From: Oscillospiraceae bacterium
GTDB lineage: Bacteria; Bacillota; Clostridia; Oscillospirales; Ruminococcaceae
Reading direction: 5' to 3'
Assembly (NCBI GenBank): GCA_021199335.1
Contig: JAJQIG010000038.1
Span: forward strand, 1,298-65,297
DNA: 64,000 nt
A model generated the notes under the pieces. The model worked only from the letters and a program-made list of their open reading frames with translations, ran no database searches and had not been told where the DNA came from. How positions within the stretch are numbered: the stretch's first letter is position 1; each line of letters starts with the position of its first letter. Made by a program: the position numbers and the translations under genes. This document shows, piece by piece, positions 41,305 to 62,895 of this stretch.

Positions 41305-41326
41305 TAATAAAGGATGGATTTGTCAA

Positions 41327-45897: not shown

Positions 45898-47055
45898 ATG
45901 GCTGATAAAAGAGATTATTATGAAGTCCTCGGCGTGGATAAAAATGCCTCCGCAGAGGATATAAAAAAGGCGTACAGGCAGCTTGCCAAAAAATATCACC
46001 CCGACCTTAATCCTGATAATAAAGAGGCTGAGGAAAAGTTTAAGGAAGTCAATGAAGCATATGAGGTCCTTTCCGATGAGGATAAAAAGGCTCGCTACGA
46101 CCAGTTCGGTCATGCGGGCGTAGACCCGTCATACGGCGGTGGCGGCTATGGCGGAGGTTTTAGCGGCGGTTTTGGAGATATGGGCGACATCGGAGATATT
46201 TTCAACAGCTTCTTTGGCGGAGGCTTCAGTGGTTCATCAAGCCGTTCAAGCGCCAACGCGCCGAGAAGAGGTCAAGATATTACCGTAAGTATTACCATTA
46301 ACTTTATGGAGGCTTGCTTTGGTAAGGAGGTTGAGGTTTCTGTTAATCGTATGGAGAAGTGTCCCGATTGCGGCGGCACAGGCTCAGCATCAGGTTCAAG
46401 CACAGAAATCTGCCCCGATTGCCACGGCTCGGGTCAGGTTAAGGTTACACAGCGTACACCATTCGGTATGATTTCCACACAAAGCCCGTGTTCACGCTGC
46501 GGAGGAAAGGGTAAAATTATTACTAATCCTTGCCCCAAATGTCATGGCAACGGCAGAACCAATACTTCAAAGAAGATAAGCGTCAGTGTCCCTGCGGGCA
46601 TCGACGACGGTCAGACATTAAGAGTTCCGAAGCAGGGCAACTCGGGTATAAACGGCGGACAGAACGGGGATTTGCTTGTCAATGTTACGGTTCGTCCCGA
46701 CTCCATTTTTGAGCGCGACGGTTACGATATTCATACCGAGGTTCCGATTACTTATTCCCAGGCGGTTCTTGGAGATGAAATTACCGTTCCAACAATTGAC
46801 GGAAAGGTTAAATACACTATTCCCGAGGGTACCCAAAATGGCGCAACATTCCGCTTCAAGGGTAAGGGCGTACAGAAATTGAACAGCAGAAATTCCGCAA
46901 GAGGAGATCAGTTCGTCCATGTCAATATTGAAGTACCGAAGGGCCTTACAAAAGAGCAGAAGGATTTGCTCCGTGAGTTCGATAAATCAATGAGTGAAGA
47001 GAACTACAATAAGCGCAGATCGTTCTTTGATAAGCTTAAAGAAGCCTTTAAATAA
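45898..47055 (+). CDS. dnaJ: Co-chaperone DnaJ
   Basis: J domain (YHPDLNP), G/F region and four CxxCxGxG zinc motifs. Confidence 0.95.
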
Positions 47056-47065
47056 AATGCGTTAA

Positions 47066-47105
47066 GCCTTGCGTGTAATGTATAGTACACGCAAGGCATT
47101 TTTGC
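47066..47105 (+). terminator. Rho-independent terminator after dnaJ
   Basis: GCCTTGCGTGTA...TACACGCAAGGC followed by ATTTTTG. Confidence 0.8.
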
Positions 47106-47134
47106 TTTTATTTCATGCATCATCCGTTTTGCTC

Positions 47135-47189
47135 TTGACAAAGGGGTCTAAAGATGCTATAATTTACTTAGGTTAGCTATGGCTAACCT
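47135..47189 (+). promoter_or_regulatory. Perfect consensus promoter (TTGACA-N17-TATAAT) followed by an 8-4-8 palindrome AGGTTAGC-TATG-GCTAACCT
   Basis: Hexamers at 47135-47140 and 47158-47163; palindrome at 47170-47189. Confidence 0.5.
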
Positions 47190-47221
47190 GTGGCTTTGGC
47201 TTGTTGAAAGGAGATATTCTG

Positions 47222-47599
47222 ATGACAACTGCAATAATTATTATCGCATTAATTGTAATAGCCGTTCTGACGGTGAAAAGCTATACCAAAAAACTTGCAA
47301 AGGGCTGCTGCGGCGGAGGAAAGGATAATGAAATACGTATGGGCAGTCAGATAAATAAATCCGACTGCCCATACTGCTACAAAATTGTAATCGGTGGAAT
47401 GAAGTGCGCAAACTGTTCCGTGAGGATTGAAAATTCATTTAACAGACAGAGCGGAGTATCCGCCGAGGTCAGCCTTGACGATAAAACGGCAACGGTCTGT
47501 TCCATGAGTCCGATTTCTGAGCTTATGCTGAGAAAAACTGTTATTGACCTCGGTTATTCCGTTGAAGGTGTTGCAAATGTAAGCGGCAAAATGGAATAA
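47222..47599 (+). CDS. Membrane-anchored heavy-metal-associated (HMA) domain protein with a Cys-rich juxtamembrane segment
   Basis: N-terminal TM, then KGCCGGG, then GMKCANC in a ferredoxin-like HMA fold. Confidence 0.6.
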   Translation: MTTAIIIIALIVIAVLTVKSYTKKLAKGCCGGGKDNEIRMGSQINKSDCPYCYKIVIGGMKCANCSVRIENSFNRQSGVSAEVSLDDKTATVCSMSPISELMLRKTVIDLGYSVEGVANVSGKME

Positions 47600-47621
47600 A
47601 CCGAAATAACGGTTGATTTTC

Positions 47622-48854
47622 TTACATATCAACAACGGTTATCTTGTCCAATATCCCGCTGAGATGCGCAATTGTAACGCCGTAGTTTGTCATAGGAATC
47701 TGCTGCGATTTTGCACGGTCAATACGTGACAAAATATATTTGCGGTTAAACATACAACCTCCGCACTGGATAATTAGGTCGTATCCCGACAAATTCTCGG
47801 GAAAATCCGTTCCGCTTACAATGTCAACCGTCAGACCATCGCCTGTTCTTTTCCTCAGCATACGTGGGATTTTGACCCTTCCGATGTCCTCTGCAAGCGG
47901 CGCATGGGTGCAGCATTCGGCAATTAAAATCTTGGATTTTTCGGTTAATGCATCGATTGCCTTTGCGCCCTCCATGTAATAGGGGAGATCCCCTTTATAT
48001 GCCGCAAAAAGCACAGAAAACGATGTAAGCATACTTTCCTGAGGCTTGTTTTCGTAAACATAACCGAACGCCTGCGAATCGGTGATAATGAGTTTTGGCG
48101 GTTTTGATAAAAGCTTTAGCGCATTTGTGAGCTTGTCCGTTGTTACGCAGATTACGGTGCATTTTTTATCCAAAAGCTCACGGAGAGTTTGTACCTGGGG
48201 AAGAATAAGTCTGCCCTTAGGCGCTTGTATGTCCTGCGGCATAACAAGGAGCACTGAATCATCCTCCGAAACTAAGCCTCCCGTAATAAATTCCGCCCCG
48301 AAGCTTTCAGGCATAAGGCGAACAAGAGCCGACTTAACCTCATCCATGCCAATGCGGTTCTTTGCGCTGACCGAAAGTGCCCTTTCACCCGTTTCCTCCG
48401 CTATCCATTCCGCAAGCGCACCCGCCGATTTGTCTAAGTCCGACTTGTTAATCAGGAAAAGTACGGGAGTGTGCCTTTTCTTAAAATAGGAATACCATTG
48501 ATTCTCTGTCGGATAGCATTCTGCGAAGCTTTTCTTAAACTCCGTCCCCATGCCGCAAAGGATAATTACAGCAATGTCCGTTTTTTCTGCCGCAAGGGCG
48601 GTTTTTTCCATCCTGAGATCCCTTAGATTGCTTTCATCGCCAAAGCCTGCGGTGTCGATAAGAACGCATGGACCGAGCGGATGAATTTCCATTGATTTGT
48701 AAACAGGATCCGTTGTAGTTCCGTCAACATCGGCAACGATGGATACATCCTGATTTGTAAATGCGTTTATAAATGATGATTTTCCGCTGTTTGTCTTTCC
48801 GAAAATGCCTATATGAAGCCGATTGCTGTTCGGAGTTTCGTTTAAAGTAGCCAT
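47622..48854 (-). CDS. hydF: [FeFe]-hydrogenase maturation GTPase HydF
   Basis: HIGIFGKTNSGKSSFINAF...DTAGF, with C-terminal Cys residues. GGAGGG RBS 6 nt upstream of the ATG at 48854. Confidence 0.85.
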   Translation of the reverse strand: MATLNETPNSNRLHIGIFGKTNSGKSSFINAFTNQDVSIVADVDGTTTDPVYKSMEIHPLGPCVLIDTAGFGDESNLRDLRMEKTALAAEKTDIAVIILCGMGTEFKKSFAECYPTENQWYSYFKKRHTPVLFLINKSDLDKSAGALAEWIAEETGERALSVSAKNRIGMDEVKSALVRLMPESFGAEFITGGLVSEDDSVLLVMPQDIQAPKGRLILPQVQTLRELLDKKCTVICVTTDKLTNALKLLSKPPKLIITDSQAFGYVYENKPQESMLTSFSVLFAAYKGDLPYYMEGAKAIDALTEKSKILIAECCTHAPLAEDIGRVKIPRMLRKRTGDGLTVDIVSGTDFPENLSGYDLIIQCGGCMFNRKYILSRIDRAKSQQIPMTNYGVTIAHLSGILDKITVVDM

Positions 48855-48867
48855 ATATTTCCCTCCA

Positions 48868-50286
48868 TCAGAAACGGAAGTCGCGTTTTCCCTCCGCAAT
48901 GTCGTGTATATGCTCATATGCCGTTTGCTTTACCTTGGGATTAGGTATCTTCTCAAGCTCACGGTCAATCATCTCAATGCCAAGCTTTTTGGTTTCTTCG
49001 CTTGCATAATCCTCAAGGTACTCTTTTAGGGTCATAAGCGCATTCGGGTGACAGCAGTTCAAAATCTGCATATTCTTGCAAAGCGCCATAAAACGATCGC
49101 CCGTTCTGCCCTCACGGTAGCACGCTGTGCAGAATGAGGGAATGTATCCGAGCTTTATAAGCCAGCCAACAACTTCATCGAGGGAACGTTGGTCGCTGAC
49201 GTCAAACTGAGCCGAGTTGTCCTCCTCCGCTTCGGGCTCGGCGTAACCTCCGACACTTGTGCGTGAGCCTCCGCTGATTTGCGATACGCCGAGTGGGAGA
49301 ACCATTTCGCGTACCTTCTGGCTTTCTCTTGTGGAAATAATCATTCCCGTATATGGCACGCTGACACGAATGAGCGCACAAATTTTCGCAAAAATATCAT
49401 CGCTGATGCCGTTATCGAAATCGTTCGGGTCGATGTCGTCCGCGCGCTTTACTCGGGGAACGCTTATCGTATGCGGGCCTACACCGTGGACTGCCTCCAA
49501 ATGCTCTGCGTGCATCAAAATTCCCGCAAATTCATAGCGGTACATTTCAAGGCCGAATAAAACGCCGAGTCCTACATCATCTATACCGCCCTCCATTGCA
49601 CGGTCCATTGCCTCGGTGTGATATGCATAGTCGTGCTTAGGGCCTGTCGGGTGAAGCTGTTCATAGGACTTTTTATTGTATGTTTCCTGGAAAAGGATGT
49701 AGGTTCCGATTCCTTTTTCCTTCAGCTTGCGATAATTTTCAACCGTTGTTGCCGCAATATTAACATTTACACGGCGAATTGCCCCGTTTTTGTGTTTTAT
49801 GCTGTAAATAGTATCAATACATTCCAAAATGTATTCTATGGGGTTATTTACGGGGTCTTCTCCCGCTTCGATTGCCAAACGCTTGTGACCCATATCCTGA
49901 AGTGCGGTGACTTCCTTTATGATTTCCTCCTGAGTCAGCTTTTTTCTTGCGATATGTTTATTTTTTGCGTGGTATGGACAGTATACACAGCCGTTAACGC
50001 AGTAGTTGGACAGGTACAGCGGCGCAAAAAGCACAATACGGTTGCCGTAATAATCCTGCTTAATCTGCTTTGCAAGATCGTATACTTCGGCAAGCCTTTC
50101 TTCGTTTTCACAGGCAAGAAGAACGGATGCCTCCCTGTGGTTTAAGCCCTTTCTGAGCTTTGCCTTTTCGATAATTTTGTCAATCAGCTCCAAATTGTCC
50201 TTGTTTGCATCCGCATATTCAAGCGTTTCACGGATTTCCTCATCGGAGATAAATTCCTCCGCCTTTAAAGATTTTGCGTTGTACAT
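48868..50286 (-). CDS. hydG: [FeFe]-hydrogenase maturation radical SAM enzyme HydG
   Basis: CVNGCVYC radical SAM motif and the C-terminal CTACYREGRTGDRFM...C cluster motif. Confidence 0.9.
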   Translation of the reverse strand: MYNAKSLKAEEFISDEEIRETLEYADANKDNLELIDKIIEKAKLRKGLNHREASVLLACENEERLAEVYDLAKQIKQDYYGNRIVLFAPLYLSNYCVNGCVYCPYHAKNKHIARKKLTQEEIIKEVTALQDMGHKRLAIEAGEDPVNNPIEYILECIDTIYSIKHKNGAIRRVNVNIAATTVENYRKLKEKGIGTYILFQETYNKKSYEQLHPTGPKHDYAYHTEAMDRAMEGGIDDVGLGVLFGLEMYRYEFAGILMHAEHLEAVHGVGPHTISVPRVKRADDIDPNDFDNGISDDIFAKICALIRVSVPYTGMIISTRESQKVREMVLPLGVSQISGGSRTSVGGYAEPEAEEDNSAQFDVSDQRSLDEVVGWLIKLGYIPSFCTACYREGRTGDRFMALCKNMQILNCCHPNALMTLKEYLEDYASEETKKLGIEMIDRELEKIPNPKVKQTAYEHIHDIAEGKRDFRF

Positions 50287-50315
50287 AAGCTTCTCCTTCC
50301 CGCCTTTATTTGGCG

Positions 50316-50462
50316 ATTCAATAAGGGGCATCGCCCCGTCATTCAACGAACGACTGGGGGCGTTAGCCCCTTAGGGGTTTCAGTGGGCGGATTGCATCCA
50401 CCCACTGAAAGACCGTATGCTCCCCGCCTGAAGAGGCGGGGGACATCAGTCGTGAGTTATAT
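50316..50462 (-). repeat. GC-rich multi-hairpin element, copy 2 (hydE-hydG intergenic, hydG leader)
   Basis: The reverse complement is about 90% identical to 9222-9368. Hairpin 2 differs by changes on both arms that keep the pairing. Confidence 0.7.
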
Positions 50463-50467
50463 TGTTT

Positions 50468-51514
50468 TTATTCTGCATAATCTCCCCTTGATATAACAAC
50501 GTGGCAGCCGATTTCCTCCATGCGCCGCTCCATACAGGATCGGCATTCCGCAGCCTCGTCGCCGGTACAGATTTTGTTGTCATAAAGCTCGTATTTTTTT
50601 CTTACAGAAACAGGGGAAAGGTTCGGCATAACAACATTTGCCCCTGAAAGAATGCCCTTTTCCCTGCCCTGCGGATGGATAGTGCCGAGCGCTGTTGTGG
50701 ATGGCAGAAGCACCCTTGGGCAAATCAGTCGGATAACAGAGAGCAGCCGTAGGGTTTCCTCCATTGTTCCCGCCTTCATTTTCGCAAACGGCGTGTCATG
50801 CTGCGGAATAAACGGCCCAATCCCCACCATATGTGGGTTTAGCTCCCGAATAAACTGTATGTCTGAATACAAGGTTTTCACGGTTTGATATGGCGAGCCA
50901 ACCATAAATCCGCAGCCCACCTGATAGCCGATTTCCTTTAAATTCCAAAGACATTGCTTGCGATTTGATAATGACATTTCCCTCGGGTGCAGCCTTCGGT
51001 AATGCTCATCATCTGCGGTTTCATGCCGAAGGAGATACCTGTTTGCTCCCGCATCAAAATATTTTTGATAGCTTTCCTTTGTTTTTTCACCTATTGAAAG
51101 GGTAATGGCGCAGTCCGAGTATTTTTCCCTTATCCCCGATACAACAGCGCAGATTCTTTCATCCGTAAAATAAGGATCCTCTCCACCCTGCAGGACAAAT
51201 GTGCGGAATCCAAGCTCATACCCCGACCTACAGCATTCCATAATCTGCTCCGTGCTTAAACGGTAACGGTCGGCGTTTGTGTTGCTTCGCCTTATGCCGC
51301 AGTAAAGGCAGTCATTCCTGCAATAATTGGTGAATTCAATCAGTCCTCGTATATAAACCGCATTGCCGTAGACCTCATGTGCGGTTGTTCTTGCAAGACT
51401 GTGGAGGTATTCAATTCCCTGCTCATCATCCGTTGTAAGTAGTTCTTCAAGCTCATTCGGGGTGATGTTTCGTGTTTCCTTAATCCTGTCCGCAATTCTA
51501 ATTATTTTCTCCAT
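50468..51514 (-). CDS. hydE: [FeFe]-hydrogenase maturation radical SAM enzyme HydE
   Basis: NYCRNDCLYCGIR motif and BioB-like fold length. Confidence 0.85.
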   Translation of the reverse strand: MEKIIRIADRIKETRNITPNELEELLTTDDEQGIEYLHSLARTTAHEVYGNAVYIRGLIEFTNYCRNDCLYCGIRRSNTNADRYRLSTEQIMECCRSGYELGFRTFVLQGGEDPYFTDERICAVVSGIREKYSDCAITLSIGEKTKESYQKYFDAGANRYLLRHETADDEHYRRLHPREMSLSNRKQCLWNLKEIGYQVGCGFMVGSPYQTVKTLYSDIQFIRELNPHMVGIGPFIPQHDTPFAKMKAGTMEETLRLLSVIRLICPRVLLPSTTALGTIHPQGREKGILSGANVVMPNLSPVSVRKKYELYDNKICTGDEAAECRSCMERRMEEIGCHVVISRGDYAE

Positions 51515-51516
51515 AG

Positions 51517-51780
51517 TCAATTGTCGTTTTTTTCGATAATGTTTGAATATACTGTCTTTGCACTTATCCCGTCAAGCCTGCCGATTTTTCCCGAAAGCGT
51601 GTTAACGGTATCCTGCGGCGCATCTATTGCAATGCTTATGATGCTTATACCACGTTTGTGGTATGGAATTCCCATTCTTCCGACAATATAAGCTCCGTAT
51701 TCATGAAGAATCTGATTCAGCTGTTCAACGGAATCACGGTTTTCCACAATAATTCCGATTAATGCTACTCTTGTTTCCAT
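51517..51780 (-). CDS. TM1266-family putative iron-only hydrogenase system regulator (ACT-like, 87 aa)
   Basis: METRVALIGIIVENRDSVEQLNQILHEYGAYIVGRMGIPY... GGAGG RBS; immediately upstream of hydE. Confidence 0.7.
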   Translation of the reverse strand: METRVALIGIIVENRDSVEQLNQILHEYGAYIVGRMGIPYHKRGISIISIAIDAPQDTVNTLSGKIGRLDGISAKTVYSNIIEKNDN

Positions 51781-51800
51781 AAAAAACCTCCATGTAAAGT

Positions 51801-51830
51801 AAAAAGGCTGTATCCGTTTTGGATACAGCC
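51801..51830 (-). terminator. Rho-independent terminator or attenuator hairpin 20 nt upstream of the TM1266-like gene start
   Basis: Minus strand reads GGCTGTATCC-AAAAC-GGATACAGCC followed by TTTTT. Confidence 0.7.
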
Positions 51831-52002
51831 AAATTGTCTTACCCGATGAATGCGCAGCCACCGCAAAAAAATGAGGGAGTGCATTCACATTCTGTCCGTT
51901 ATGCGCTGTATCTTCCGCTTCAACCGTGTTTCGGCGTCAGAAATTGTATTTTTTACATTAATGCAATTTTCTTGATTCGGCAATGCCCGCAAAATTTTCG
52001 GG

Positions 52003-53919
52003 TTACATTGTCATAAGGCTCGATGATTTTTTCTTAAGGTCGGAGGAAATACCTTTAACCGTGTCGGTCGATGCCGCAATTTCCTCTGTGCTTGCCGCAA
52101 GGTTCGTCATTCGTTCATTAACGCTGTCAACAATTTCAAGCAAACGGTCTGATTCATCAAGAAGCAGATCCATTGCAGTGCTTATCTGTTCCTTGTTTGA
52201 GTTGCTGTCAACGGCAGCGGCGCGGCTCTTTTCCGAAAGGTTCTTTATTTCCTCCGCAACAACTGCGAAGCCCTTTCCCGCTGCTCCCGCATGAGCGGCT
52301 TCAATTGAAGCGTTCAGCGACAGAAGATTTGTTTGGCTTGCTATGCTGCTGACGGCGTTGTTATTGCTTTCAAGATTGCCCAAAAGACCGACTATATCGG
52401 AGAAGGAGTTTTTCAGCCTTTCGCAGAAATCCACAACCTCCGCCATTGAGCTTGTTATTTCTGTGCTTTCCTCCGCATTGTTGCTGTTTCCTTCAGCCAT
52501 CTGCTTTACGGATAGGTCAAGGCTTTCCAAATCCTCGTTAAGCTCCCTCGCAACCTCCGCAATCATATCGCTGCGGCGGCTTATCTCGATATTAGCTTCG
52601 GCAGCCTGTCTGCCCTGCTCCTCAACCTCGTCCTTGATGTAATGAATGCAGGAATCCTTGTGGTTGCATCCGTTGAAAATAGCGGCAGCCATCTGTTCGC
52701 AGGATTCATATCCGCAGGCGCCGCAGTTGATTTTGCGCTGCTCACGGGTTATTTTGTTCATTTGGTTGAATATGCTGTCAGCCTGTATGCTGTCGGGCTT
52801 GTTTATTTCATGTCCATGTGATTTATCGGTGTAAACCCTTATAAAGTCGTTAAGGTTTAGCTTTGAAAATTGGCGATTAAGCAGCTTGAGCCTTTGAGCG
52901 GGGGTGCTTTTTACTGCCCATGGACCGCCTGAGGGCTTTGTGCTGTTCTTTTTTATTTTCTGAATTTCGTATAAGGTGTCGTCGCTCTTGGTTTTTTCTT
53001 CTTCAACGCCTGTTCCGTACAAGCATCCCGAACCGCAGTTGAGAGCATCGACCATAAACGGAAGCTCCTTACCCTTGATTACCCTGTCCTTATAATCCTG
53101 CAGGAAAGCATATGCGTGTTTTTCCCCTTCAATTTGGCGAATAAATACATCATTGCCGCAGAACCAGTACACATTTTCCTTTAGTCCGCCGGGCATAGGA
53201 TAGATTGAACCGAGTCCGTATTCAATTTCATCGGTTGCATTTCTGCCGCCAATGTTATTTTCCCTTACATATTTCATAAGATGATCGAACGTAACGTTGT
53301 AGGATATGTAGCCGTAATTGTTTGGATCCTCGATCTCATTCTTTTTTGCGATACATGGGCTGATGAACGCCAGCTTATCCGTAATATGTTCATATTTCTT
53401 TGCATATATTGCCGCGCACATCATAGGGCTGTGAACAGGCATAAGATTCGGAAGAAGCTCGGGAACGTAATGCTCTATGTAATTGACGATTGCGGGGCAC
53501 GGCTGGGATATTCCGCCATAATATTTATTCTGCGTAATATAATTGATATATGCCCATGTGGTAATATCCGCGCCGAAGCTTACGCTTATAATGCGGTTAA
53601 CGCCAAGCTCCTTTAATCCGCCGAGAACAGTTCCGTATTCGTTCGGATAATTTGCCAAAAAGGCAGGGGCTAGGAGAAGTGAAATTCTTTCTCCCTTTTT
53701 AAGATCCTCAAAAAATCTCTCCGTATCGTCCTTGAATGCTCTTGCATTATGCTCGCACGCATCAAAGCAGGCGCCGCAGTTGATGCATTGCTCCGAATTT
53801 ACCTCAATGCGAGCCTTCCCGTTCCGTACAACCGCTTTGTTTGCAGTCAGCATAGGACAAACCGAAATGCATTTGTTGCATCCGATACAGTTATCGTTTG
53901 TATAAACAAAACCAGCCAT
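52003..53919 (-). CDS. Sensory [FeFe]-hydrogenase-like protein fused to a methyl-accepting chemotaxis (MCP) signalling domain
   Basis: Two ferredoxin motifs ([24 protein letters not shown]). H-cluster-like motifs ([23 protein letters not shown]). An extra Cys cluster (CGACGYESC...C...C). MCP hairpin tip ([34 protein letters not shown]). No TM segment. Confidence 0.8.
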
Positions 53920-54545
53920 TTAGCCTTCATTCCTCCTGATTGTATATGCTGAAAATGCATAAATTCTTTATAATTCGACACTTTACAGTAAATTATGCTG
54001 CGGAATAATTATGGCAATACCCCTCACTCCTCATTAAAGCTTGTCCGTCTGTAACGACTTCTTAAATTACTGTTAAATTCCGCACTTACTGTTATTGCAT
54101 AAATATCCATCATTGAGTATATACCTGTTTAAAATAGATGTCAAGTAGTTTGTCCTGAAAATTCACGTATTTTTTATGCGATATTCACAAAATGACCACT
54201 TTGTAGAAAATGAATTTTGACGGCTGCCTTTCATCAGAAAAAGATTAAGCGGCAGTTAACATTTTAATCGCGCAGCTGCTCTCACACAACCTCTAATTTG
54301 TTTATCGGCACGAAAAACAAAAAATTAACACCTATTTAAAGCTGAAAAAAATTTTTCTGCGTTTCTCCCAAAATAACACGATTTTTTTGTGCATTATCTA
54401 CGGTACAACCGCCTAATGCATTACCGCACAAGGCATGGACAAAGCCATTAAAAGGTGATATAATATCATCAAAGGGTAAACAAAAGGACGAATATTGAAG
54501 CGCGGTTCTGCGAAATTGCGGCGGAGGATGAGGAGGTAAAGAAAA

Positions 54546-55379
54546 ATGCTCGGAGCGATTATCGGAGATATTGTAGGCTCTCGGTTTGAATGTAATAACT
54601 ACAGAGCGAAGGATTTTGAGCTTTTTACGGACAAATGCTCGCCGACCGATGACAGCATTATGTCACTGGCGGTTGCAAAGGCTATTCTAAACAGCAAGCC
54701 CGACCACAGCGACTTGTCCGATGCGGCGGTGAGGTATATGCAGCAGCTTGGAAGGCTGTATCCGAATTCGGGATATGGAATGATGTTCCGCAGCTGGCTT
54801 ATGAAAAGGGCCCCGCAGCCCTATGGAAGCTTTGGAAACGGTGCGGCAATGCGAGTCAGCGCCGTCGGCTTTGCCGCACAGAGTCTTGCCGATGCAAAAA
54901 TTATGTCCGATATGGTAACTAAGGTTACGCATAATCATCCCGAAGGAATTAAGGGCGCAGAGGCTGCCGCCGTTGCGGTTTTTATGGCGCATTCGGGAAA
55001 AAGTGCGCTTGAAATTTGTGATGTTATCGATAAGGAATATTACCCTATGGATTTTACTTTAGATGAAATTCGGGGTACATATATGTTTAATTCAAGCTGT
55101 CAAGGGACTGTTCCGCAGGCATTAATGGCATTTTTTGAATCAACGGGCTTTGAGGATGCGATTCGTAATGCAATTTCTATCGGCGGGGACAGCGATACGC
55201 TTGCGGCAATCACAGGTGGGATTGCCGAAGCGTATTACGGAATCCCCGACGACATTCGTAGGGATGCAATCTCATTTCTCGATGAGCGTCAGCTTAAGAT
55301 ACTTTTGGATTTTGAAAGCAAATATCCTCCCGTTGCGGAAAAAGCTCGGCAACACAGGGGAATGAGCGGTTATGCCTAA
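54546..55379 (+). CDS. ADP-ribosylglycohydrolase-family protein
   Basis: GAIIGDIVGS...TDDSIM...GGDSDTLAAITGGIAEAYYG pattern. Confidence 0.75.
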   Translation: MLGAIIGDIVGSRFECNNYRAKDFELFTDKCSPTDDSIMSLAVAKAILNSKPDHSDLSDAAVRYMQQLGRLYPNSGYGMMFRSWLMKRAPQPYGSFGNGAAMRVSAVGFAAQSLADAKIMSDMVTKVTHNHPEGIKGAEAAAVAVFMAHSGKSALEICDVIDKEYYPMDFTLDEIRGTYMFNSSCQGTVPQALMAFFESTGFEDAIRNAISIGGDSDTLAAITGGIAEAYYGIPDDIRRDAISFLDERQLKILLDFESKYPPVAEKARQHRGMSGYA

Positions 55380-56079: not shown

Positions 56080-56430
56080 GAACGGTGCTTCGGTGCAAAG
56101 CTTTTGCAGCCGAAGATAATAGGGAAACAGGTTGGAATCCTGTGCGATCTCGTCACCGTATTAAGGGAATGAACGGACTGTGATGTTTTATCGGTCACTG
56201 GCGAAAGTCGGGAAGGCTGTCTGTTTGTGATGATCTTTAAGTCGGGAGACCTGCCGTTTGCAAGTACAGGGAAAAGCCGTTAAAGCGCTTTTCTCAGATC
56301 ACGAGGTATTGATCGTACATAGCGGATATTGCCGTTTGGCAGTATCTTTGTTTGCTGTGCCTTCTTTATGTTTCGTAAGGAAAGGCATTTTTTCTACGTC
56401 AATGCCTCCGATAAAAATGAATCGGAGGAT
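56080..56430 (+). ncRNA. Cobalamin riboswitch. Aptamer is about 56080-56262; the expression platform has a terminator (56358-56398) and an RBS-sequestering hairpin (56405-56428)
   Basis: AGGGAAACAGGTTGGAATCCTGT...CGTCACCGTA, B12-box-like GGTCACTGGCGAAAGTCGGGAAGGC, and AGTCGGGAGACCTGCC. Then TGCCTT...AAGGCA followed by TTTTTT, then CCTCCGAT...ATCGGAGG covering the GGAGG RBS. Confidence 0.9.
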
Positions 56431-56437
56431 TTTTATT

Positions 56438-57466
56438 ATGAAAAAAATTTATGCTTCACTTGCCGCAATTCTTCTTGCCGCTGCTGTTATGACAGGCTGC
56501 GGTTCATCGGACAATACCGAGGTTCCTTCCGCTGATGCATCCGAGGCTTCCGTTTCCGAAGAAGCGCAGTCCGAGGAGGATGCCGATGCGTCTGAATCCG
56601 AATCGGAGGAAGAAGAGGAAAATTATGATACGGGCGATGCTTCGCTCGACAACATCCGCAATCAGGATGAAATCGGGGAAAATGAGCTGCTTGTCGTAAG
56701 CTTCGGTACGAGCTATAACGACAGCCGCCGCCTTACTATCGGAGCAATAGAGGATGCGCTTGAAACGGCTTTCCCCGATTATTCCGTAAGAAGGGGATTT
56801 TCCGCAAATATTATTATTGACCACGTTGAGCGCCGTGACGGAATTCTTATCGACGATATAAATGCGGCTCTTGAAAGGGCTGTGGACAACGGTGTAAAAA
56901 CTCTTGTTATTCAGCCTACCCATCTTATGAACGGACTTGAATATGACGAAATTGTCGGTGAGGTTGCAGCCTATTCCGATGCCTTTGAAAATGTTGTATT
57001 CGGAGAACCGCTCCTTACAAGCGATGATGATTTTAAGCGTGTTGAACAGGCTATTACGGAATGGACATCCGAATATGATGACGGCGAAACCGCTATATGC
57101 TTTATGGGACACGGCACAGAAGCGGAATCCAATCAGGTTTATCAGAAAATGCAGGACCTCCTTACATCGGACGGTTACAGCAATTATTTTGTCGGAACGG
57201 TTGAAGCTGAGCCATCCCTCGACGACGTCCTTGAGCAGGTCAAGGCAGGCGGATATAAGAGAGTTGTACTTGAACCCCTTATGGTTGTTGCGGGAGATCA
57301 CGCCAACAATGATATGGCGGGCGATGAAGAGGATTCTTGGAAAACAACCTTTGAAAGCGAAGGCTTTGAGGTTGTATGCCTTTTAAGGGGTCTTGGCGAA
57401 AATGAAGCTGTAAGACAGATATATATTGACCATGCACAGGCCGCAATTGACTCGCTCGGCGAATAA
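56438..57466 (+). CDS. Exported lipoprotein with a CbiK-type (anaerobic cobaltochelatase-like) domain
   Basis: Lipobox VMTGC, an acidic Ser/Glu linker, then the CbiK pattern VVSFGTS...IQPTHLMNG...FMGHGTE...LEPLMVVAGDHANND. Confidence 0.75.
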   Translation: MKKIYASLAAILLAAAVMTGCGSSDNTEVPSADASEASVSEEAQSEEDADASESESEEEEENYDTGDASLDNIRNQDEIGENELLVVSFGTSYNDSRRLTIGAIEDALETAFPDYSVRRGFSANIIIDHVERRDGILIDDINAALERAVDNGVKTLVIQPTHLMNGLEYDEIVGEVAAYSDAFENVVFGEPLLTSDDDFKRVEQAITEWTSEYDDGETAICFMGHGTEAESNQVYQKMQDLLTSDGYSNYFVGTVEAEPSLDDVLEQVKAGGYKRVVLEPLMVVAGDHANNDMAGDEEDSWKTTFESEGFEVVCLLRGLGENEAVRQIYIDHAQAAIDSLGE

Positions 57467-57532
57467 ATTCAGCATTACAACGACTGCCGCCATAAGCCGC
57501 GGCAGTTATTGTTTATTGAAAGGAATTGTAAA

Positions 57533-58453
57533 ATGAATATAAATAAAAAAGCTGCGGCAGCGGCGCTTATCGGAGCTATGCTGCTTGGATTTTCGGGTTG
57601 TTCGGGGGAAAGTTCCGAGGTTCAGTCCGATTTTACAACGGCTTCGGAGGAGCTATCCGAAGGGGTATCTGCAAAGGCGGAAAACAACGTCGCCTCAGGG
57701 GATGAAACAGTTCCGTATGAGCTTGATGTTTCCGAGAATATGACGCCGATATACGGCGACAGCCTCAAGGACGGAGTTTATGATATAACGGTTGATTCAA
57801 GCTCCTCAATGTTTTCGGTAACGAAATGCGAGCTTACGGTTGAAGGCGGCGGGATGACAGCCTGCATGACTATGAGCGGCACCGGCTATCTTTACGTCTT
57901 TATGGGCAAGGGCGAGGATGCGGAGGAAAGCGGGTTTATTTCCTATGTTGAAAATGAAAACGGAGAGCATACATATACCGTTCCTGTTGAAGCGCTTGAT
58001 ATGGGAATAGAATGCGCCGCATTCAGCAGGAAAAAGGAACAGTGGTATGACAGAACTCTGATTTTCCGAAGCGATTCTCTTCCCTCGGATGCTTTTGCCG
58101 ATGGATTTATAAACACTGTTCAAAGTCTTGGAATTGCCGATGGAGCATACACTGTTGAGGTTACTCTTGAGGGCGGTTCGGGACGTTCATATGTAGAATC
58201 CCCTGCGGTTGTAACGGTAAAGGACGGCAATGCGGAGGCTGATATAATCTGGAGCAGCTCAAATTACGATTACATGGTTGTAAACGGGGAGAAGTATTAT
58301 CCGATAAATTCGGAGGGCAACTCGGAATTTATTATTCCAATCACGGGGTTTGATTACAGAATGCCCGTTTCCGCAGATACCACCGCCATGAGTCAGCCTT
58401 ATGAGATAGAATATACGCTTTATTTTGATTCGGAAACAATAGTGAGCCAATGA
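57533..58453 (+). CDS. Lipoprotein of unknown function with two tandem ~105-aa repeats
   Basis: Lipobox FSGCSG. Repeats start DGVYDITV and DGAYTVEV. Confidence 0.6.
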   Translation: MNINKKAAAAALIGAMLLGFSGCSGESSEVQSDFTTASEELSEGVSAKAENNVASGDETVPYELDVSENMTPIYGDSLKDGVYDITVDSSSSMFSVTKCELTVEGGGMTACMTMSGTGYLYVFMGKGEDAEESGFISYVENENGEHTYTVPVEALDMGIECAAFSRKKEQWYDRTLIFRSDSLPSDAFADGFINTVQSLGIADGAYTVEVTLEGGSGRSYVESPAVVTVKDGNAEADIIWSSSNYDYMVVNGEKYYPINSEGNSEFIIPITGFDYRMPVSADTTAMSQPYEIEYTLYFDSETIVSQ

Positions 58454-59568
58454 AAAAATTATTTATTTGTGCCGCAATCTGTTTAATCGCCATGACAGGC
58501 TGCAAAGAAAGCGGCTCCGATTCTGCGGAGCTGTCAGGGCTTCAATATATCGGCAGCACCGAGCTTACCTATGCGGAGCAGTTCTCTATTGATAATTACA
58601 GCGGGGATATTTCCGTTATTACAATAGGCGAGGAGAAATATATCGTTGTTCCCGAAAATTGCACCGCCGCAATCCCCGATGGTATGACCGTTATAACAAA
58701 GCCGCAGGAAAGCATCTACCTTGCCGCATCATCCGCAATGGATCTTTTCGATGGTATCGGTGCGCTCGAAAACATATGCGCAACCGCAACTGCGGAAAAC
58801 AGCTGGTCGCTCCCGAATGTAAAGGAAGCGATAGACTGCGGCAGTATTCTTTATGCGGGAAAATACAGCGCTCCGGATTTTGAGCTTCTCCTTTCGGAGG
58901 GTTGTTCACTTGCAATTGAATCGACAATGATTTACCATAAACCCGAAATAAAGGAACAGCTTGAGGAAATTGGCATACCTGTTCTTGTGGAGCGTTCAAG
59001 CTACGAATCCCACCCACTAGGGCGGCTCGAATGGATAAAGCTGTATGGAATCCTTACGGACCGTGAGGAGGAAGCGGAGGAAATATTCAACCGACAGGCG
59101 GAGTGCGTTAACAGCATTATGTCGGAGGAGAAAACGGGCAAAATCGTTGCATTTTTCTATATAAGCTCCAATGGATATGTGAACGTAAGAAAGCCGGGGG
59201 ATTACATCTCAAAAATGATTGAGCTTGCGGGCGGAGAGTACATTTTTACAGCGGATGATATGAACGTTGACGAAAATGCTCTTTCAACGATAAATATGCA
59301 GTTTGAAACGTTTTACGCAATTGCATCCGAAGCGGATATTCTTATTTACAACAGCACCGTTGACGGCGGAGTTGATACAATTTCTCAGCTTACGGAAAAA
59401 AACGGAATGCTCGCCGATTTTAAAGCTGTAAAGAACGGAGATGTATGGTGTACCGAAAGCAATATGTTTCAGCAGACGACAGGTACGGCGGATATGATAA
59501 GCGATATGCATAAAATATTTACGGACGAAGCCGATGATGAAATGAATTATCTTCACAGATTGAAATAA
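58450..59568 (+). CDS. ABC transporter substrate-binding lipoprotein (BtuF/FhuD class)
   Basis: Lipobox AMTGC. Class III periplasmic-binding-protein pattern. Start overlaps the upstream stop (ATGA). Confidence 0.8.
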   Translation: MKKLFICAAICLIAMTGCKESGSDSAELSGLQYIGSTELTYAEQFSIDNYSGDISVITIGEEKYIVVPENCTAAIPDGMTVITKPQESIYLAASSAMDLFDGIGALENICATATAENSWSLPNVKEAIDCGSILYAGKYSAPDFELLLSEGCSLAIESTMIYHKPEIKEQLEEIGIPVLVERSSYESHPLGRLEWIKLYGILTDREEEAEEIFNRQAECVNSIMSEEKTGKIVAFFYISSNGYVNVRKPGDYISKMIELAGGEYIFTADDMNVDENALSTINMQFETFYAIASEADILIYNSTVDGGVDTISQLTEKNGMLADFKAVKNGDVWCTESNMFQQTTGTADMISDMHKIFTDEADDEMNYLHRLK

Positions 59569-59581
59569 AAAGAGGTATAAT

Positions 59582-60607
59582 GTGAGCAGAAAGATAAGAT
59601 ATACGGTTTGTTTTTTATCCCTTGCGCTGATTTTTGCCCTGCTGGCGGCTCTTAACCTTTTTATCGGGAGCATTTCCTATTCCCCGAGCGAGGTTGCGGC
59701 TGTCCTTTTGAATAAAAGCACGGACAGCACCGCAATAAGCATTGTAATGAATATAAGGCTTCCGAGAATGGTTGCGGCAGCCGTCCTTGGGGGAGGTCTG
59801 TCCGTTTCGGGTTATCTTCTTCAAACATATTTTGCGAACCCTATAGCGGGTCCGTTCGTGCTGGGAATATCCTCGGGGGCGAAGCTCACGGTTGCGCTTG
59901 CGATGATTTTTTCCCTTGAAAGGGGCGCAGCAATGGGTTCCGCCACACTTATGGCGGCATCATTCGCAGGTTCAATGCTTTCGATGGGATTTGTTTTAGC
60001 TGTTGCGGGAAGAATAAAGGGCAGCGGTATGCTTATCGTCAGCGGAGTTATGATAGGATACATATGCTCTGCGGTAACGGACTTTGCAGTTACATTTGCC
60101 GATGATTCAAACATTGTTAATCTCCATAGCTGGTCGCTCGGCAGCTTTTCGGGAATTGACGGCGGCGATGTAAAGGTGTTCTCCGCAGTTGTTTTTTTCG
60201 CTGTTATTGCTGCGTTTCTTCTGTCAAAGGATATAAACGCATACAGGCTTGGGGAAACATACGCCGCAAGCGTTGGGGTAAATATAAGGCTTTTCAGGAT
60301 TGCCCTTATATTGCTTTCAAGCCTTCTTTCGGCAGTAGTAACGGCATTTGCGGGTCCTGTTTCATTTGTCGGAATAGCTGTTCCTCATGTTGTAAAGGGA
60401 ATTTTCGCATCCTCCGATTCCGCAGTGATAATTCCGGCATCGTTTATTGGCGGGGGAGTGTTCTGCCTGCTGTGCGACCTTCTCGCAAGGACGGCATTTG
60501 CGCCCACAGAGCTTAGCATAAGTTCCGTTACGGCAGTGTTCGGTGCGCCTATCGTTATAATAATAATGATAGGTAAGAAGCGCAGGGGTGCCGGAGGTGC
60601 AGCATGA
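59582..60607 (+). CDS. FecCD/BtuC-family ABC permease
   Basis: RLPRMVAAAVLGGGLSVSGYLLQ... typical of the FecCD family. Confidence 0.85.
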   Translation: MSRKIRYTVCFLSLALIFALLAALNLFIGSISYSPSEVAAVLLNKSTDSTAISIVMNIRLPRMVAAAVLGGGLSVSGYLLQTYFANPIAGPFVLGISSGAKLTVALAMIFSLERGAAMGSATLMAASFAGSMLSMGFVLAVAGRIKGSGMLIVSGVMIGYICSAVTDFAVTFADDSNIVNLHSWSLGSFSGIDGGDVKVFSAVVFFAVIAAFLLSKDINAYRLGETYAASVGVNIRLFRIALILLSSLLSAVVTAFAGPVSFVGIAVPHVVKGIFASSDSAVIIPASFIGGGVFCLLCDLLARTAFAPTELSISSVTAVFGAPIVIIIMIGKKRRGAGGAA

Positions 60608-61737
60608 ATATTCCTATTATCAAAGCCGAAAATTTGTCCGTTGGATATGGTGGAAAAATAATCATAGGCGGGATAAATATTTCTTTTGAAAAGGGGAAAA
60701 TTATCACAATCATAGGTCCTAACGGAGCGGGTAAATCTACCCTCCTAAAGAGTATTTCCCGACAGCTTGAAACGCTCTGCGGAGCTGTTTTTATTGAGGG
60801 AGAAAACCTTGATCTGATAAAAAGAAATGAGCTTGCAAGGAAAATTTCTTTGCTTATGACATCTCGAACCGATACCGAGCTTATGACCTGTGAGGACGTC
60901 ATTGCCTCGGGACGGTTTCCCTACACGGGAAGATTTGGATTTCTTTCCGCTAATGATAAGGAAATTGTGCGGAACGCTATGATTCTTACATCGACCGAAT
61001 GCCTTGCCGAATGTGATTTTGATAAAATAAGCGATGGTCAGCGTCAGCGTGTTATGCTCGCAAGGGCAATATGCCAAGAGCCTGATATACTTATTCTTGA
61101 CGAACCGACATCGTATCTTGACATTCATCATAAGCTCGATTTTCTCGGAATAATTTCAAGGCTTGTCCGTGAGAATGGTATATCTGTGGTAATGTCGCTT
61201 CATGAGCTTGACCTTGCAATGCGTGTTTCCGATGAAATAATATGCGTGAATGAAAACGGCATAGATAAAGTCGGGACTCCCGAGGAAATATTCTCGAACG
61301 GATTTATAGAAAGACTTTATCACATTGAAAGCGGGAGCTTCAACACAGTTTCGGGAACAGCGGAGCTTAAACGAAATGAAGGCAGCCCCAAAATATTCGT
61401 TATTGGCGGAAATGGCAGCGGATGTAATGCTTATCGCAGGCTTCAAAGGGCGAATATCCCCTTTGCGGCGGGTGTCATTCATGAAAATGATATTGATTTT
61501 CCGATTGCAAAGGCTCTTGCGGCAAAGGTTGTTTCCGAAAAAGCATTTGAAAGCATTTCCGCCGAAAATGAGCGTGCGGCGGAGGAAATAATTGAGGGCT
61601 GCGGCAGGGTTATATGCTGCACGGAGCTTTTCGGCACATCAAATAAGGCAAATGAACGCCTTAAATTTTATGCCGGGCAGCTCGGGAAATTGTATTCTGA
61701 GGAGAGTGTGTTTAATGATACAGATATATTGCGGTGA
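60604..61737 (+). CDS. ABC transporter ATPase (BtuD/FepC-like) with a ~115-aa C-terminal extension
   Basis: GPNGAGKSTLL, SDGQRQRV and ILDEPTS. 377 aa total. Confidence 0.85.
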   Translation: MNIPIIKAENLSVGYGGKIIIGGINISFEKGKIITIIGPNGAGKSTLLKSISRQLETLCGAVFIEGENLDLIKRNELARKISLLMTSRTDTELMTCEDVIASGRFPYTGRFGFLSANDKEIVRNAMILTSTECLAECDFDKISDGQRQRVMLARAICQEPDILILDEPTSYLDIHHKLDFLGIISRLVRENGISVVMSLHELDLAMRVSDEIICVNENGIDKVGTPEEIFSNGFIERLYHIESGSFNTVSGTAELKRNEGSPKIFVIGGNGSGCNAYRRLQRANIPFAAGVIHENDIDFPIAKALAAKVVSEKAFESISAENERAAEEIIEGCGRVICCTELFGTSNKANERLKFYAGQLGKLYSEESVFNDTDILR

Positions 61738-62230
61738 CGGAAAGGGAAAAACAACTGCGGCGGTTGGGGCGGCTGTCCGTTTTGCGGGCTGCGGCGGAAG
61801 AGTTCTTTTTTCCCAATTCATGAAATCAGGAACATCATCCGAAATTTCAATCTTGAAAAGTATACAGAGCATTGACGTTTTCGAGGGCTACAGCGTTTCA
61901 AAATTTTCGTTTATGATGAATAAATCCGAAAGGGAGAAAGCTGCAATAGGCTTTTTGAAGCAGCTTGAGGATATTAAGAAGCTTTCCTGCGAAAATAATT
62001 ACGGAATGATAATTGCAGATGAGCTTGCCGTCTGCGTTTCGTGTGGATTTGTTCCCGAGGAGGAGGCAATCGAGTTCCTTAAAAATGTTCCCGCCGAAAC
62101 GGAGATAATTATTACGGGAAGAAACCCCTCCGAGAGCCTTTTGGGATATGCGGACTATGTTTCCGAAATTAAGAAAATAAAACACCCCTTTGATAGGGGT
62201 GTTGACGCACGAAGGGGTATTGAATTTTAA
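61715..62230 (+). CDS. cobO: Cob(I)yrinic acid a,c-diamide adenosyltransferase (CobO/BtuR type)
   Basis: MIQIYCGDGKGKTTAAVGAAVR...QFMK...DEL pattern. Confidence 0.85.
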   Translation: MIQIYCGDGKGKTTAAVGAAVRFAGCGGRVLFSQFMKSGTSSEISILKSIQSIDVFEGYSVSKFSFMMNKSEREKAAIGFLKQLEDIKKLSCENNYGMIIADELAVCVSCGFVPEEEAIEFLKNVPAETEIIITGRNPSESLLGYADYVSEIKKIKHPFDRGVDARRGIEF

Positions 62231-62249
62231 AAAGCGAAAGCCGCATAAA

Positions 62250-62879
62250 TTACCTTGCTTCCAACAGCAGCGCATTGCATATGGCTGCCGCAATGCCGCT
62301 TCCGCCCTTGTTGCCCTTTGCGACAATATAGGGAATTTCACTTTGCATAATAAGCTCCTTCGCTTCAACAACGTTTACAAATCCGACAGGAACACCGATA
62401 ATAAGCTTCGGTGTTATTTTTTTGTCCATTATAAGCTCGTAAAGCCTTATAAGCGCAGTGGGGGCGTTCCCAACCGCAATTATAACATCATTTTCCGCTC
62501 CGCAGGCTTTTTCCATGGAAACCATAGCCCTTGTTATCCCCCGTTTTGTCGCTTCTTCGGCGATATCTTCATCGGACATAAAGCATCGGGCGCATCCCCC
62601 AAATGAGGTAAGAAGCCTTTTATTTATCCCCGAAAGAGCCATATTTGTATCGGTAATAATATCCGCCCCGCCTTGCAGAGCTGCCTTGCCGATCGCCACG
62701 GCATTTTTGGAGAAAACAAGGTTATCGGCATAGTCAAAATCCGCCGATGTATGTATAACCCTTTTCAGTATAGGCTTCTGTTCGGGCGGAATATCTCTGC
62801 CTTTAATATGCTCTTCAATTATTTCAAAGCTGCGTTTTTCAATATCGGCAGGCTTTAGTATTTTAAAATCACAGTTCAT
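62250..62879 (-). CDS. cbiC: Cobalt-precorrin-8 methylmutase
   Basis: RVIHTSADFDY...AVGNAPTAL...IGVPVGFV motifs. ATG at 62879. Confidence 0.85.
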   Translation of the reverse strand: MNCDFKILKPADIEKRSFEIIEEHIKGRDIPPEQKPILKRVIHTSADFDYADNLVFSKNAVAIGKAALQGGADIITDTNMALSGINKRLLTSFGGCARCFMSDEDIAEEATKRGITRAMVSMEKACGAENDVIIAVGNAPTALIRLYELIMDKKITPKLIIGVPVGFVNVVEAKELIMQSEIPYIVAKGNKGGSGIAAAICNALLLEAR

Positions 62880-62895
62880 TTTATTATGACCCCTT

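Follow-up and report, generated by a model that had tools for sequence, protein, structure and literature searches.

The gene considered here lies at positions 52003..53919, on the minus strand, of a 64,000-nucleotide stretch from Oscillospiraceae bacterium (GenBank assembly GCA_021199335.1, contig JAJQIG010000038.1, positions 1,298 to 65,297), hereafter called the window. It encodes a soluble protein of 638 aa in which a sensor module of the [FeFe]-hydrogenase type is fused to the signalling hairpin of a methyl-accepting chemotaxis protein (MCP); the open reading frame (ORF) list, Pfam and an exact-sequence look-up confirmed this fusion. We propose that the product is a cytoplasmic chemoreceptor of [FeFe]-hydrogenase group C2, with a HydS-like input, a short MCP hairpin as output and H2 as the stimulus, a reading to which we give an even chance.

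The gene starts with an ATG at 53919, with AGGAGG 12 nt 5′ of the start. Four Pfam features score above their own gathering cut-offs: a 4Fe-4S dicluster at residues 6-59; Fe_hyd_lg_C at 83-302 (E = 1.3e-30; 107.3 bits, cut-off 22.1); FeS, PF04060, at 396-425 (28.4 bits, cut-off 23); and MCPsignal at 479-628 (E = 2e-20; 73.8 bits, cut-off 34.6). The protein is predicted to have no transmembrane segment, since the highest Kyte-Doolittle mean over any 19 residues is 1.06, far under the level of about 1.6 that is usual for a membrane helix. An AlphaFold2 (AF2) model was obtained with a mean predicted local distance difference test (pLDDT) score of 70, and Foldseek matched it to the hydrogenases CbA5H, HydABC, DdH and CpI (E 1e-13 to 1e-10) and to MCP hairpins (E 1e-5 to 1e-4). 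A preliminary description of the gene, made from the sequence alone, had listed two 4Fe-4S ferredoxin motifs, an H-domain with cluster-ligating cysteines, an extra Cys-rich motif and a canonical MCP hairpin, with no transmembrane helix. All of these were recovered, and the search for Fe_hyd_lg_C and MCPsignal that it had suggested found both; as far as computation can address it, the interpretation given there also holds in every part.

NCBI already has an identical protein, MCD7730881.1, under the name 'MAG: methyl-accepting chemotaxis protein [Oscillospiraceae bacterium]', on a contig of 78.9 kb to which four further proteins of the window were also traced. When 5.8 billion proteins were searched, more than 6000 matched, and the best 120 of these, of 638-682 aa and 64-100% identity, have the same architecture throughout. 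Because so many database proteins match and the best of them carry the complete architecture, the fusion is not a product of chance. A single 90%-identity cluster comprises 2886 member sequences, and when one genome per GTDB species was scanned, relatives turned up in the genomes of at least 576 species. The best 80 genomic loci belong to Lachnospiraceae and one Oscillospiraceae, with Roseburia, Acetatifactor, Kineothrix, Agathobacter, Lachnospira, 'Eubacterium' and unnamed Lachnospiraceae among the genera; in these GTDB-genome relatives, identity to the window protein is at most 67%. Several of the genera that carry the family are flagellated.

The sensor module has three iron-sulfur parts, all read, like every feature of the protein, from the minus strand. 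The F-domain (residues 6-59, 53743..53904; Pfam Fer4_10 and Fer4_7) contains two ferredoxin-type [4Fe-4S] motifs, with cysteines 11/14/17/21 and 45/48/51/55. The H-domain (residues 83-302, 53014..53673) is assigned from Fe_hyd_lg_C, from alignments to PDB entries 8a6t, 7p5h and 9rkm, and from Foldseek. In the HMMER alignment to solved [FeFe] hydrogenases, SQPCP (138-142) falls on TSCCP and SPCIAKKNE (187-195) on MPCxxKxxE, while NCGSGCLYG (294-302) aligns with the C-x-x-G-C-x-x-G-G-G-Q-P segment (MACVGGCIGGGGQP) of 9rkm. The ligands of the H-cluster correspond to C141, C189, C295 and C299 of the sensor protein, and its K192 and E195 to CpI K358 and E361. Since SQPCP aligns on TSCCP, the proton-relay cysteine (CpI C299) is represented by Pro140, the same substitution that the preliminary description had pointed out; Ser187 and Leu293 occupy the positions of CpI M353 and M497. 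The segment with the group A residues E279/E282/R286 is also replaced, as the alignment to 8a6t has a 4-residue gap there and no acidic residue or Arg at those positions. Ser164 presumably stands at S319/S323 of CpI, an uncertain assignment.

The C-terminal Fe-S domain (residues 396-425, 52645..52734; Pfam PF04060) is the third part and accounts for the extra Cys-rich motif. It has the form C399-x2-C402-x4-C407-x16-C424, with CGACGYESC at 399-407, and its spacing is exactly the Cx2Cx4Cx16C of characterised HydS (PMC8163306). Sensory [FeFe] hydrogenases are described as having two N-terminal clusters and this C-terminal motif, without the group A proton pathway (PMC8163306). With its cluster motifs, four ligand cysteines and loss of proton-transfer residues, the sensor protein has a module of the HydS type.

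The conservation of these residues was assessed in a set formed by the sensor protein and 50 MCP-fused representatives, with identity down to 36% (n=51). All eight cysteines of the F-domain are kept in 50-51 of the 51 members, and the four of the C-terminal motif in all 51; the additional Cys418 is variable. The four H-cluster cysteines and the equivalents of CpI K358, E361, P231 and P324 show little or no variation; the pocket residues concerned are K192, E195, P85 and P165 in the sensor protein. This pattern suggests strong purifying selection on the cofactor-binding residues of the MCP-fused family. The substitutions in the pocket are themselves nearly invariant: C299 is changed to Pro in 49/51, M353 to Ser in 46/51 and M497 to Leu in 48/51. 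The signature C299P/M353S/M497L, as a putative mark of the C2 active site, is a new detail of the present analysis. In the sensory sequences of HydDB, the residue found at the C299 position is Ala in about 43%, Cys in 17% and Pro in about 10% (PMC10055695). Proline at this position is a known minority state among sensory sequences overall and the rule in the MCP-fused clade.

These constraints bear on whether the protein contains an H-cluster at all. In a degenerate or Nar1-like scaffold, the [2Fe] subcluster would be absent and the MCP would sense only the state of the Fe-S clusters or redox. Such a reading could draw on the missing proton pathway and on the NCBIfam hydrogenase models, whose scores lie far below their trusted cut-offs (TIGR04105, 133 against 450 bits; TIGR02512, 98 against 406 bits). 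Those low scores are to be expected, however, because the two models cover groups A and B, and characterised HydS proteins that deviate in the same way do bind a functional H-cluster (PMC8163306, PMC10055695). The preliminary description had named assignment to the Nar1-like non-hydrogenase clade as one of the outcomes that would count against it; what was found is that the [2Fe]-pocket residues equivalent to K358, E361, P231 and P324, which Nar1/NARF-like proteins would not be expected to retain, are kept together with the four cluster cysteines, and that the maturase genes hydE, hydG and hydF adjoin the sensor gene, both in the window and in one related locus (L023). A real H-cluster is favoured over a Nar1-like relic because ligands and pocket are so constrained, and we regard the absence of the [2Fe] subcluster as very improbable.

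On the same strand, the sensor gene is followed by TM1266, hydE, hydG and hydF, in this order. The first (51517..51780, minus strand) encodes a putative iron-only-hydrogenase system regulator of the TM1266 family (PF21699, E = 4.9e-32; TIGR03959, 115.6 bits against 60.8); its likely start is the ATG at 51780, preceded by GGAGG. HydE (50468..51520, minus strand) and HydG (48868..50346, minus strand) are H-cluster radical SAM maturases, each with an equivalog match (TIGR03956, 602.6 bits against 254.6; TIGR03955, 932 bits against 312). HydG probably starts some 20 codons into the ORF as listed, the TIGR03955 match beginning at residue 22. HydF, the H-cluster scaffold GTPase (47622..48917, minus strand), has the Pfam domains HydF_tetramer, HydF_dimer and MMR_HSR1.

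A general link between the family and hydEGF was considered and rejected on the basis of tblastn searches with TM1266, HydE, HydG and HydF against 80 related loci. Only two of these matched: L023, which has all three maturases in the order hydE-hydG-hydF-sensor, and L039, which has TM1266 beside the sensor. The adjacency to TM1266-hydE-hydG-hydF, another new detail, is peculiar to the lineage of the window. The window and L023 nevertheless represent two independent arrangements of sensor and maturases, which supports a functional need for H-cluster assembly. The flanks of most related loci contain housekeeping genes (glyA, homoserine dehydrogenase, aspartate kinase, a LUD-domain protein and a GH3 enzyme).

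A sensory hydrogenase domain and an MCP domain in one polypeptide are what defines HydDB [FeFe] group C2, and by this architecture the sensor protein is assigned to that group. HydDB recognises three group C subtypes, with C1 linked to kinases, C2 to MCPs and C3 to phosphatases, and since 2016 it has labelled C2 as 'Chemotactic (putative)' (Søndergaard, Pedersen & Greening; PMC5037454). The listing under group C given by the preliminary description is therefore correct and is sharpened here to C2. Recent gut surveys report group C2 in gut Clostridia. The hydrogenase-MCP type has been known since 2016 and is cited in later genome surveys; the window protein adds one member to it. Our literature searches found no characterised hydrogenase-MCP fusion and no H2 chemotaxis receptor, in agreement with the statement of the preliminary description. 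Studies of sensory [FeFe] hydrogenases have been confined to TmHydS, which is PAS-linked, and to TamHydS of group D (PMC8163306, PMC10055695, PMC13104023).

The same sensor module occurs with many other outputs. A HMMER search against 1.84 billion representatives at 50% identity gave 848 clusters at E <= 1e-30, and 69 of the best 150 of these have an MCP tail. Among 56 of the remaining representatives that were scanned, which share the module up to the C-terminal cluster, GGDEF was found in 24, HisKA in 22, HATPase_c in 20, REC in 16, EAL in 12, PAS in up to 9 for each PAS family, SpoIIE/PP2C in 3 and HD-GYP in 1. Because it is exchanged among all the main bacterial output types, the HydS-like module behaves as an input domain. 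Its fusion to GGDEF, EAL, histidine-kinase and PP2C outputs also counts among the new details. The module common to the non-MCP relatives P0122-P0267 (alignment A2) has two Fer4 motifs, the H-domain and Cx2Cx4Cx16C. The sensory hydrogenases linked to cyclic di-GMP (c-di-GMP) through GGDEF or EAL lie outside the three group C subtypes of HydDB.

A second, divergent hydrogenase-MCP paralogue is present about 7 kb downstream of the first in two metagenome-assembled genomes of Lachnospiraceae (L042, 17465-19144; L055, 17677-19239). Its H-domain is about 39% identical, it has SQPCA instead of SQPCP, and 98 residues separate its tip from its C-terminus.

The MCP signalling hairpin (residues 456-638, 52006..52554) was assigned from Pfam MCPsignal, the AF2 model, Foldseek and a near-gapless alignment to the short soluble receptor Tm14. 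In the AF2 model, a helix extends over residues 425-544, a turn over 545-546 and a return helix of 91 residues over 547-637. The C-arm is thus 13 heptads long, which would give a bundle of about 26 heptads, the same length as in Tm14. The hairpin also aligns to Tsr 283-464, and alignment to the 44H receptor TM1143 requires heptad-sized insertions. The first ~30 residues of the N-arm helix form a connector (residues 426-455, 52555..52644; AF2 and alignment A1), which has no partner in the C-arm and joins the Fe-S domain to the predicted four-helix bundle.

The length of the connector varies in whole heptads. The distance from the fourth Fe-S cysteine to the Phe of the tip is 134 residues in 23 representatives, 127 in 12 and 120 in 2, and the window protein is one heptad short in the connector when compared with 118 of 120 close homologues. 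Such exact seven-residue steps mark a coiled coil in which the phase is important. This whole-heptad variation (120/127/134) of the helix that leads from the C-terminal cluster to the tip is, as read from the alignments, a new detail. In alignment A1 (columns 481-487), exactly seven residues are absent near residue ~440 (nt ~52600) relative to all 27 aligned relatives, and P0042 has another seven-residue deletion near the same site.

The connector and the range of outputs also bear on the idea of a catalytic hydrogenase merely tethered to a chemoreceptor array or to a coiled-coil scaffold. TmHydS and TamHydS do keep measurable H2 oxidation and evolution, as a tethered enzyme would. The proton-transfer pathway is lost, though, and M353 and M497 are substituted; the module is interchangeable among many signalling outputs; and the length of the connector helix is conserved in phase, as signal transmission would require. 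A tethered enzyme is extremely unlikely in our view.

Another reading concerns the ligand. An H-cluster that senses O2 or CO could let a strict anaerobe escape oxygen, and H-clusters do react with O2 and bind CO tightly. HemAT and Aer2, the known soluble gas-sensing MCPs, sense O2. In addition, TamHydS, which has the same M353S/M497L pocket, forms an unusual air-stable state (PMC8163306). On the other hand, damage of the H-cluster by O2 is usually irreversible, which would make it a poor gradient sensor, and the characterised HydS proteins respond reversibly to H2; no specific sequence evidence for O2 or CO sensing was found. We consider this reading decidedly improbable.

The tip interaction region (residues 528-563, 52231..52338), the predicted surface of contact with CheA/CheW and within the receptor trimer, is the best conserved part of the MCP portion. 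The tip itself reads AHAGAAGKG at 542-550, and the Phe equivalent to Tsr F396 is invariant (n=51). Over the 36 residues of the region, the window protein is identical to TM1143 at 26 (72%), to Tm14 at 23 and to Tsr at 22 (61%). A conventional transmembrane MCP is encoded near a related sensor in four loci (L018, L029, L047 and L072). The tips of those in the three Lachnospiraceae loci L018, L029 and L047 are identical to that of the window protein at 27-30 of the 36 residues (75-83%) and are 72-83% identical to the tip of the sensor of their own genome. This likeness argues for the same CheA/CheW partners; together with the shortness of the hairpin, it is a further new detail. The transmembrane MCPs of the four loci have 146-149 residues from the tip to the C-terminus (44H-like) versus 86-98 in the sensors. 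The sensors thus bear a closely similar tip on a shorter stalk, a difference tolerable in a soluble receptor; it is plausible, as for a soluble receptor, that the short hairpin could enter the same receptor array.

A candidate methylation site was found at residues 608-617 (52069..52098), with the pair E612/E613. Nowhere else in the protein is the consensus [ASTG][ASTG]xx[EQ][EQ]xx[ASTG][ASTG] matched, and the site aligns to ISASTEEVTS of TM1143 of Thermotoga maritima. Position 612 is E or Q in 35/51 members and position 613 is E in 33/51. Sites of the Tsr type were looked for and rejected: in the tip-anchored alignment, the C-arm stops at the equivalent of Tsr 484, short of Tsr 493/502, and in the N-arm the equivalents of 297, 304 and 311 are not E/Q pairs (we take 297, 304, 311, 493 and 502 to be the methylation sites of Tsr).

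The hairpin could alternatively feed a different chemosensory pathway or other partners, with an output such as hydrogenase expression, biofilm or c-di-GMP instead of motility. Its length class, which differs from that of the 44H-like transmembrane MCPs of related genomes, would agree with this, as would the lack of che genes near the sensor loci. The very frequent fusion of the module to GGDEF, EAL and histidine-kinase domains indicates that H2 or redox information commonly serves decisions other than motility, and a PucR-like regulator stands directly upstream of the sensor in the close relatives P0008, P0015 and P0028. The tip, however, is shared with the conventional transmembrane MCPs of the same genomes to the degree given above; Thermotoga has the short soluble Tm14 alongside the longer TM1143; the AF2 model matched, in Foldseek, an integrative PDB model of YfmS of B. 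subtilis with CheW (9a72); the named carrier genera include flagellated ones; and the absence of che neighbours says little, given that MCP genes are usually scattered. An output other than motility is rather improbable on this evidence.

In the close relatives (67-76% identical), the regulator is a 364-aa PucR/CdaR-like protein (GGDEF_2 and HTH_30) encoded 60-150 nt upstream on the same strand (L081, 8830-9924; L083, 8753-9847; L084, 8843-9937; L085, 653-1747), and a gyrB/parE-like gene pair lies downstream of the sensor. This neighbourhood could reflect shared ancestry and not a functional link.

The mechanism of the proposed H2 chemoreceptor can be outlined as follows. HydE, HydG and HydF would build the [2Fe] subcluster, which would be inserted beside the [4Fe-4S] cluster held by the conserved C141/C189/C295/C299. 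Intracellular H2 would then react at the H-cluster, and by analogy with TmHydS and TamHydS its reduced state would be filled according to H2 pressure. Because the group A proton pathway is absent (CpI C299 = Pro; no E279/E282/R286), turnover would be slow and the reduced state would report H2 pressure. Electrons may equilibrate with the two N-terminal [4Fe-4S] clusters, and a conformational change may pass through the C-terminal Cx2Cx4Cx16C domain into the continuous 120-residue helix. In the predicted homodimer, this helix and the 91-residue return helix would form the ~26-heptad bundle, whose tip would dock CheW/CheA and alter kinase output, and hence flagellar reversal; methylation of E612/E613 may provide adaptation. 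An H2-producing fermenter would likely move from inhibitory H2 toward H2 consumers, the sign of the response being a guess. The incorporation of the H-cluster, H2 as the signal and the coupling to CheA are points that we infer from TmHydS/TamHydS and from MCP biology. That this is a true cytoplasmic H2 chemoreceptor, by which flagellated gut Lachnospiraceae and Oscillospiraceae steer along H2 gradients through a slow H-cluster, is a tentative proposal that we place slightly short of even.

The F-domain suggests a related reading, in which the signal is energy or redox state. Its clusters would exchange electrons with the ferredoxin pool, the H-cluster would act as a slow vent or reference electrode, and CheA would be told the poise of reduced ferredoxin relative to H2, that is, the thermodynamic headroom of fermentation. 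[quoted passage not shown] Against this, a plain ferredoxin-like or PAS-flavin domain would suffice for such a task, and the costly H-cluster pocket under strong selection, together with the recurrent hydEFG linkage, points to H2 chemistry. We consider redox taxis in place of H2 sensing to be unlikely, although the H2 reading and the redox reading are compatible and not mutually exclusive.

Several observations weigh against the proposed H2 chemoreceptor. The confidence of the AF2 model is moderate, the sensor hairpin is shorter by about nine heptads per arm than the transmembrane MCPs of related genomes, and the EE pair of the candidate methylation site is kept in only ~60-65% of the divergent members. 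Linkage to hydEGF occurs in only 2-3 of 81 loci. [quoted passage not shown] Our literature searches also returned no biochemical or behavioural data for any C2 member. Finally, no che or flagellar genes were found in the 64-kb window or within ±7-10 kb of 85 related loci, and tblastn with E. coli CheW gave no match in 86 loci and the window. The lack of che neighbours is uninformative, since MCP genes are usually scattered.

As regards transcription, a terminator-like hairpin (51796..51830, minus strand), GGCTGTATCC-aaaac-GGATACAGCC followed by TTTTT, lies after the stop codon of the sensor gene and before the TM1266 ribosome-binding site. It has 10 bp, 6 GC pairs and T5, and it ends ~15 nt 5′ of the GGAGG and ATG of TM1266. 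Because this hairpin precedes TM1266, the sensor gene is probably transcribed largely alone. No promoter-like site was detected between the hairpin and the start codon of TM1266. Transcription of the maturase operon may rely on read-through, or else the hairpin may serve as an attenuator. A promoter-like site, TTGACA-17-TATACT (54116..54144, minus strand), stands ~200 nt 5′ of the sensor start; it is weak evidence, as promoter-like sites in the region are no more numerous than in shuffled sequence. An Rfam scan of positions 47000-55000, which include the 626-nt upstream region and the TM1266 leader, gave no match at E <= 1.

The remainder of the window is an ordinary Clostridia chromosome, with spoIIE, glycogen genes, hrcA-dnaK-dnaJ, EF-G and a cluster for cobalamin and iron uptake, and no catalytic hydrogenase was found in its 64 kb. 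The cobalt/corrinoid cluster (56258-63954) encodes a CbiK-type chelatase with an N-terminal extension, a weakly NEAT-like protein, a periplasmic binding protein, a FecCD permease, an ABC ATPase and CobT; genes for an ADP-ribosylglycohydrolase and a histidine phosphatase lie between it and the sensor gene. A 652-aa protein (11221-13179, plus strand) combines a sugar-binding fold like that of LacI and periplasmic binding proteins with a C-terminal GGDEF domain, and is a putative cytoplasmic ligand-controlled diguanylate cyclase. Two ORFs on the plus strand have no Pfam match. One, of 1076 aa (21013-24243), is very hydrophobic and looks polytopic, with many predicted membrane spans, and overlaps a region of strongly negative AT skew (-0.22 at 22001-24000). 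The other, of 321 aa (41102-42067), looks secreted when read from Met ~76, having a segment that resembles a signal peptide and a hydrophobic anchor at the C-terminus; the TTG listed as its start probably lies too far upstream.

In gut and rumen fermentation, H2 is a central currency. To our knowledge, its perception by bacteria is understood in detail for the [NiFe] regulatory hydrogenase only, and the [FeFe] sensory hydrogenases are, as far as we know, still called 'putative' since none has had its output measured. The MCP-fused version is attractive for experiments since its output would be fast and easily scored, either as CheA activity in vitro or as a bias of swimming in H2 gradients. 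The family is large and is found in abundant butyrate-producing gut taxa, and a recent preprint reports that carriers of group C2 are depleted in Crohn's disease. If the proposal is true, fermenters could find H2-consuming partners or escape H2 build-up, and interspecies hydrogen transfer would be partly behavioural. A demonstration of H2 taxis would add a behavioural layer to hydrogen-transfer models and would give the first readout of the coupling between an H-cluster and a signalling domain. The whole-heptad variation of the connector would then suggest a simple mechanical coupling, shared with the GGDEF-, EAL-, kinase- and PP2C-linked relatives. The family is unsurprising to a specialist, yet it offers the most tractable readout so far for signalling by [FeFe] sensory hydrogenases.

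In relation to known systems, the window protein has the same defining architecture and the same proposed role, H2 sensing with a signal through the MCP, as HydDB group C2, with no difference in kind. It differs by its connector, one heptad shorter than in most close relatives, and by its position beside a maturase operon, which most members do not share. With TmHydS of Thermotoga maritima (group C/M2f) and TamHydS of Thermoanaerobacter mathranii (group D/M2e) it shares the two N-terminal motifs, the four ligand cysteines, the C-terminal Cx2Cx4Cx16C and the lack of both C299 and the group A proton pathway, a likeness drawn from published descriptions of their features. The pocket of TamHydS, with M353 changed to Ser and M497 to Leu, is exactly that of the window protein (PMC8163306), whereas the C299 position is Pro in the window protein and Ala in TmHydS (PMC10055695). 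The outputs also differ: TmHydS has a PAS domain and TamHydS none, while in the window protein the MCP hairpin comes straight after the C-terminal cluster.

On the output side, the nearest counterpart is Tm14 (TM0014, PDB 3g67/3g6b), a short soluble hairpin of equal length. The alignment covers 164 residues (469-632 of the window protein, 31-194 of the Tm14 chain) with one 3-residue offset, and the TM-score normalised to Tm14 is 0.75. Fragments of the Tm14 tip bind CheA/CheW and regulate the kinase in vitro (bioRxiv 10.1101/2020.03.27.011866). Tm14 has no sensor domain, however, and its tip is only 23/36 identical. HemAT and Aer2 are cytoplasmic receptors that join a haem-based domain for diatomic gases to an MCP hairpin. 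Their haem and O2 stand against an H-cluster, three [4Fe-4S] clusters and presumably H2 in the window protein; the input domains are not homologous, and the window protein has no HAMP or PAS relay. The logic of the proposal, a hydrogenase of crippled turnover that senses H2 and is coupled to a signalling protein, is that of HoxBC-HoxJ. The latter differs in its unrelated metalloenzyme family, in its separate kinase subunit and in its output, which is transcriptional and not behavioural. HoxBC-HoxJ, the regulatory [NiFe] hydrogenase of Cupriavidus necator, is mentioned as an H2 sensor in PMC8163306.

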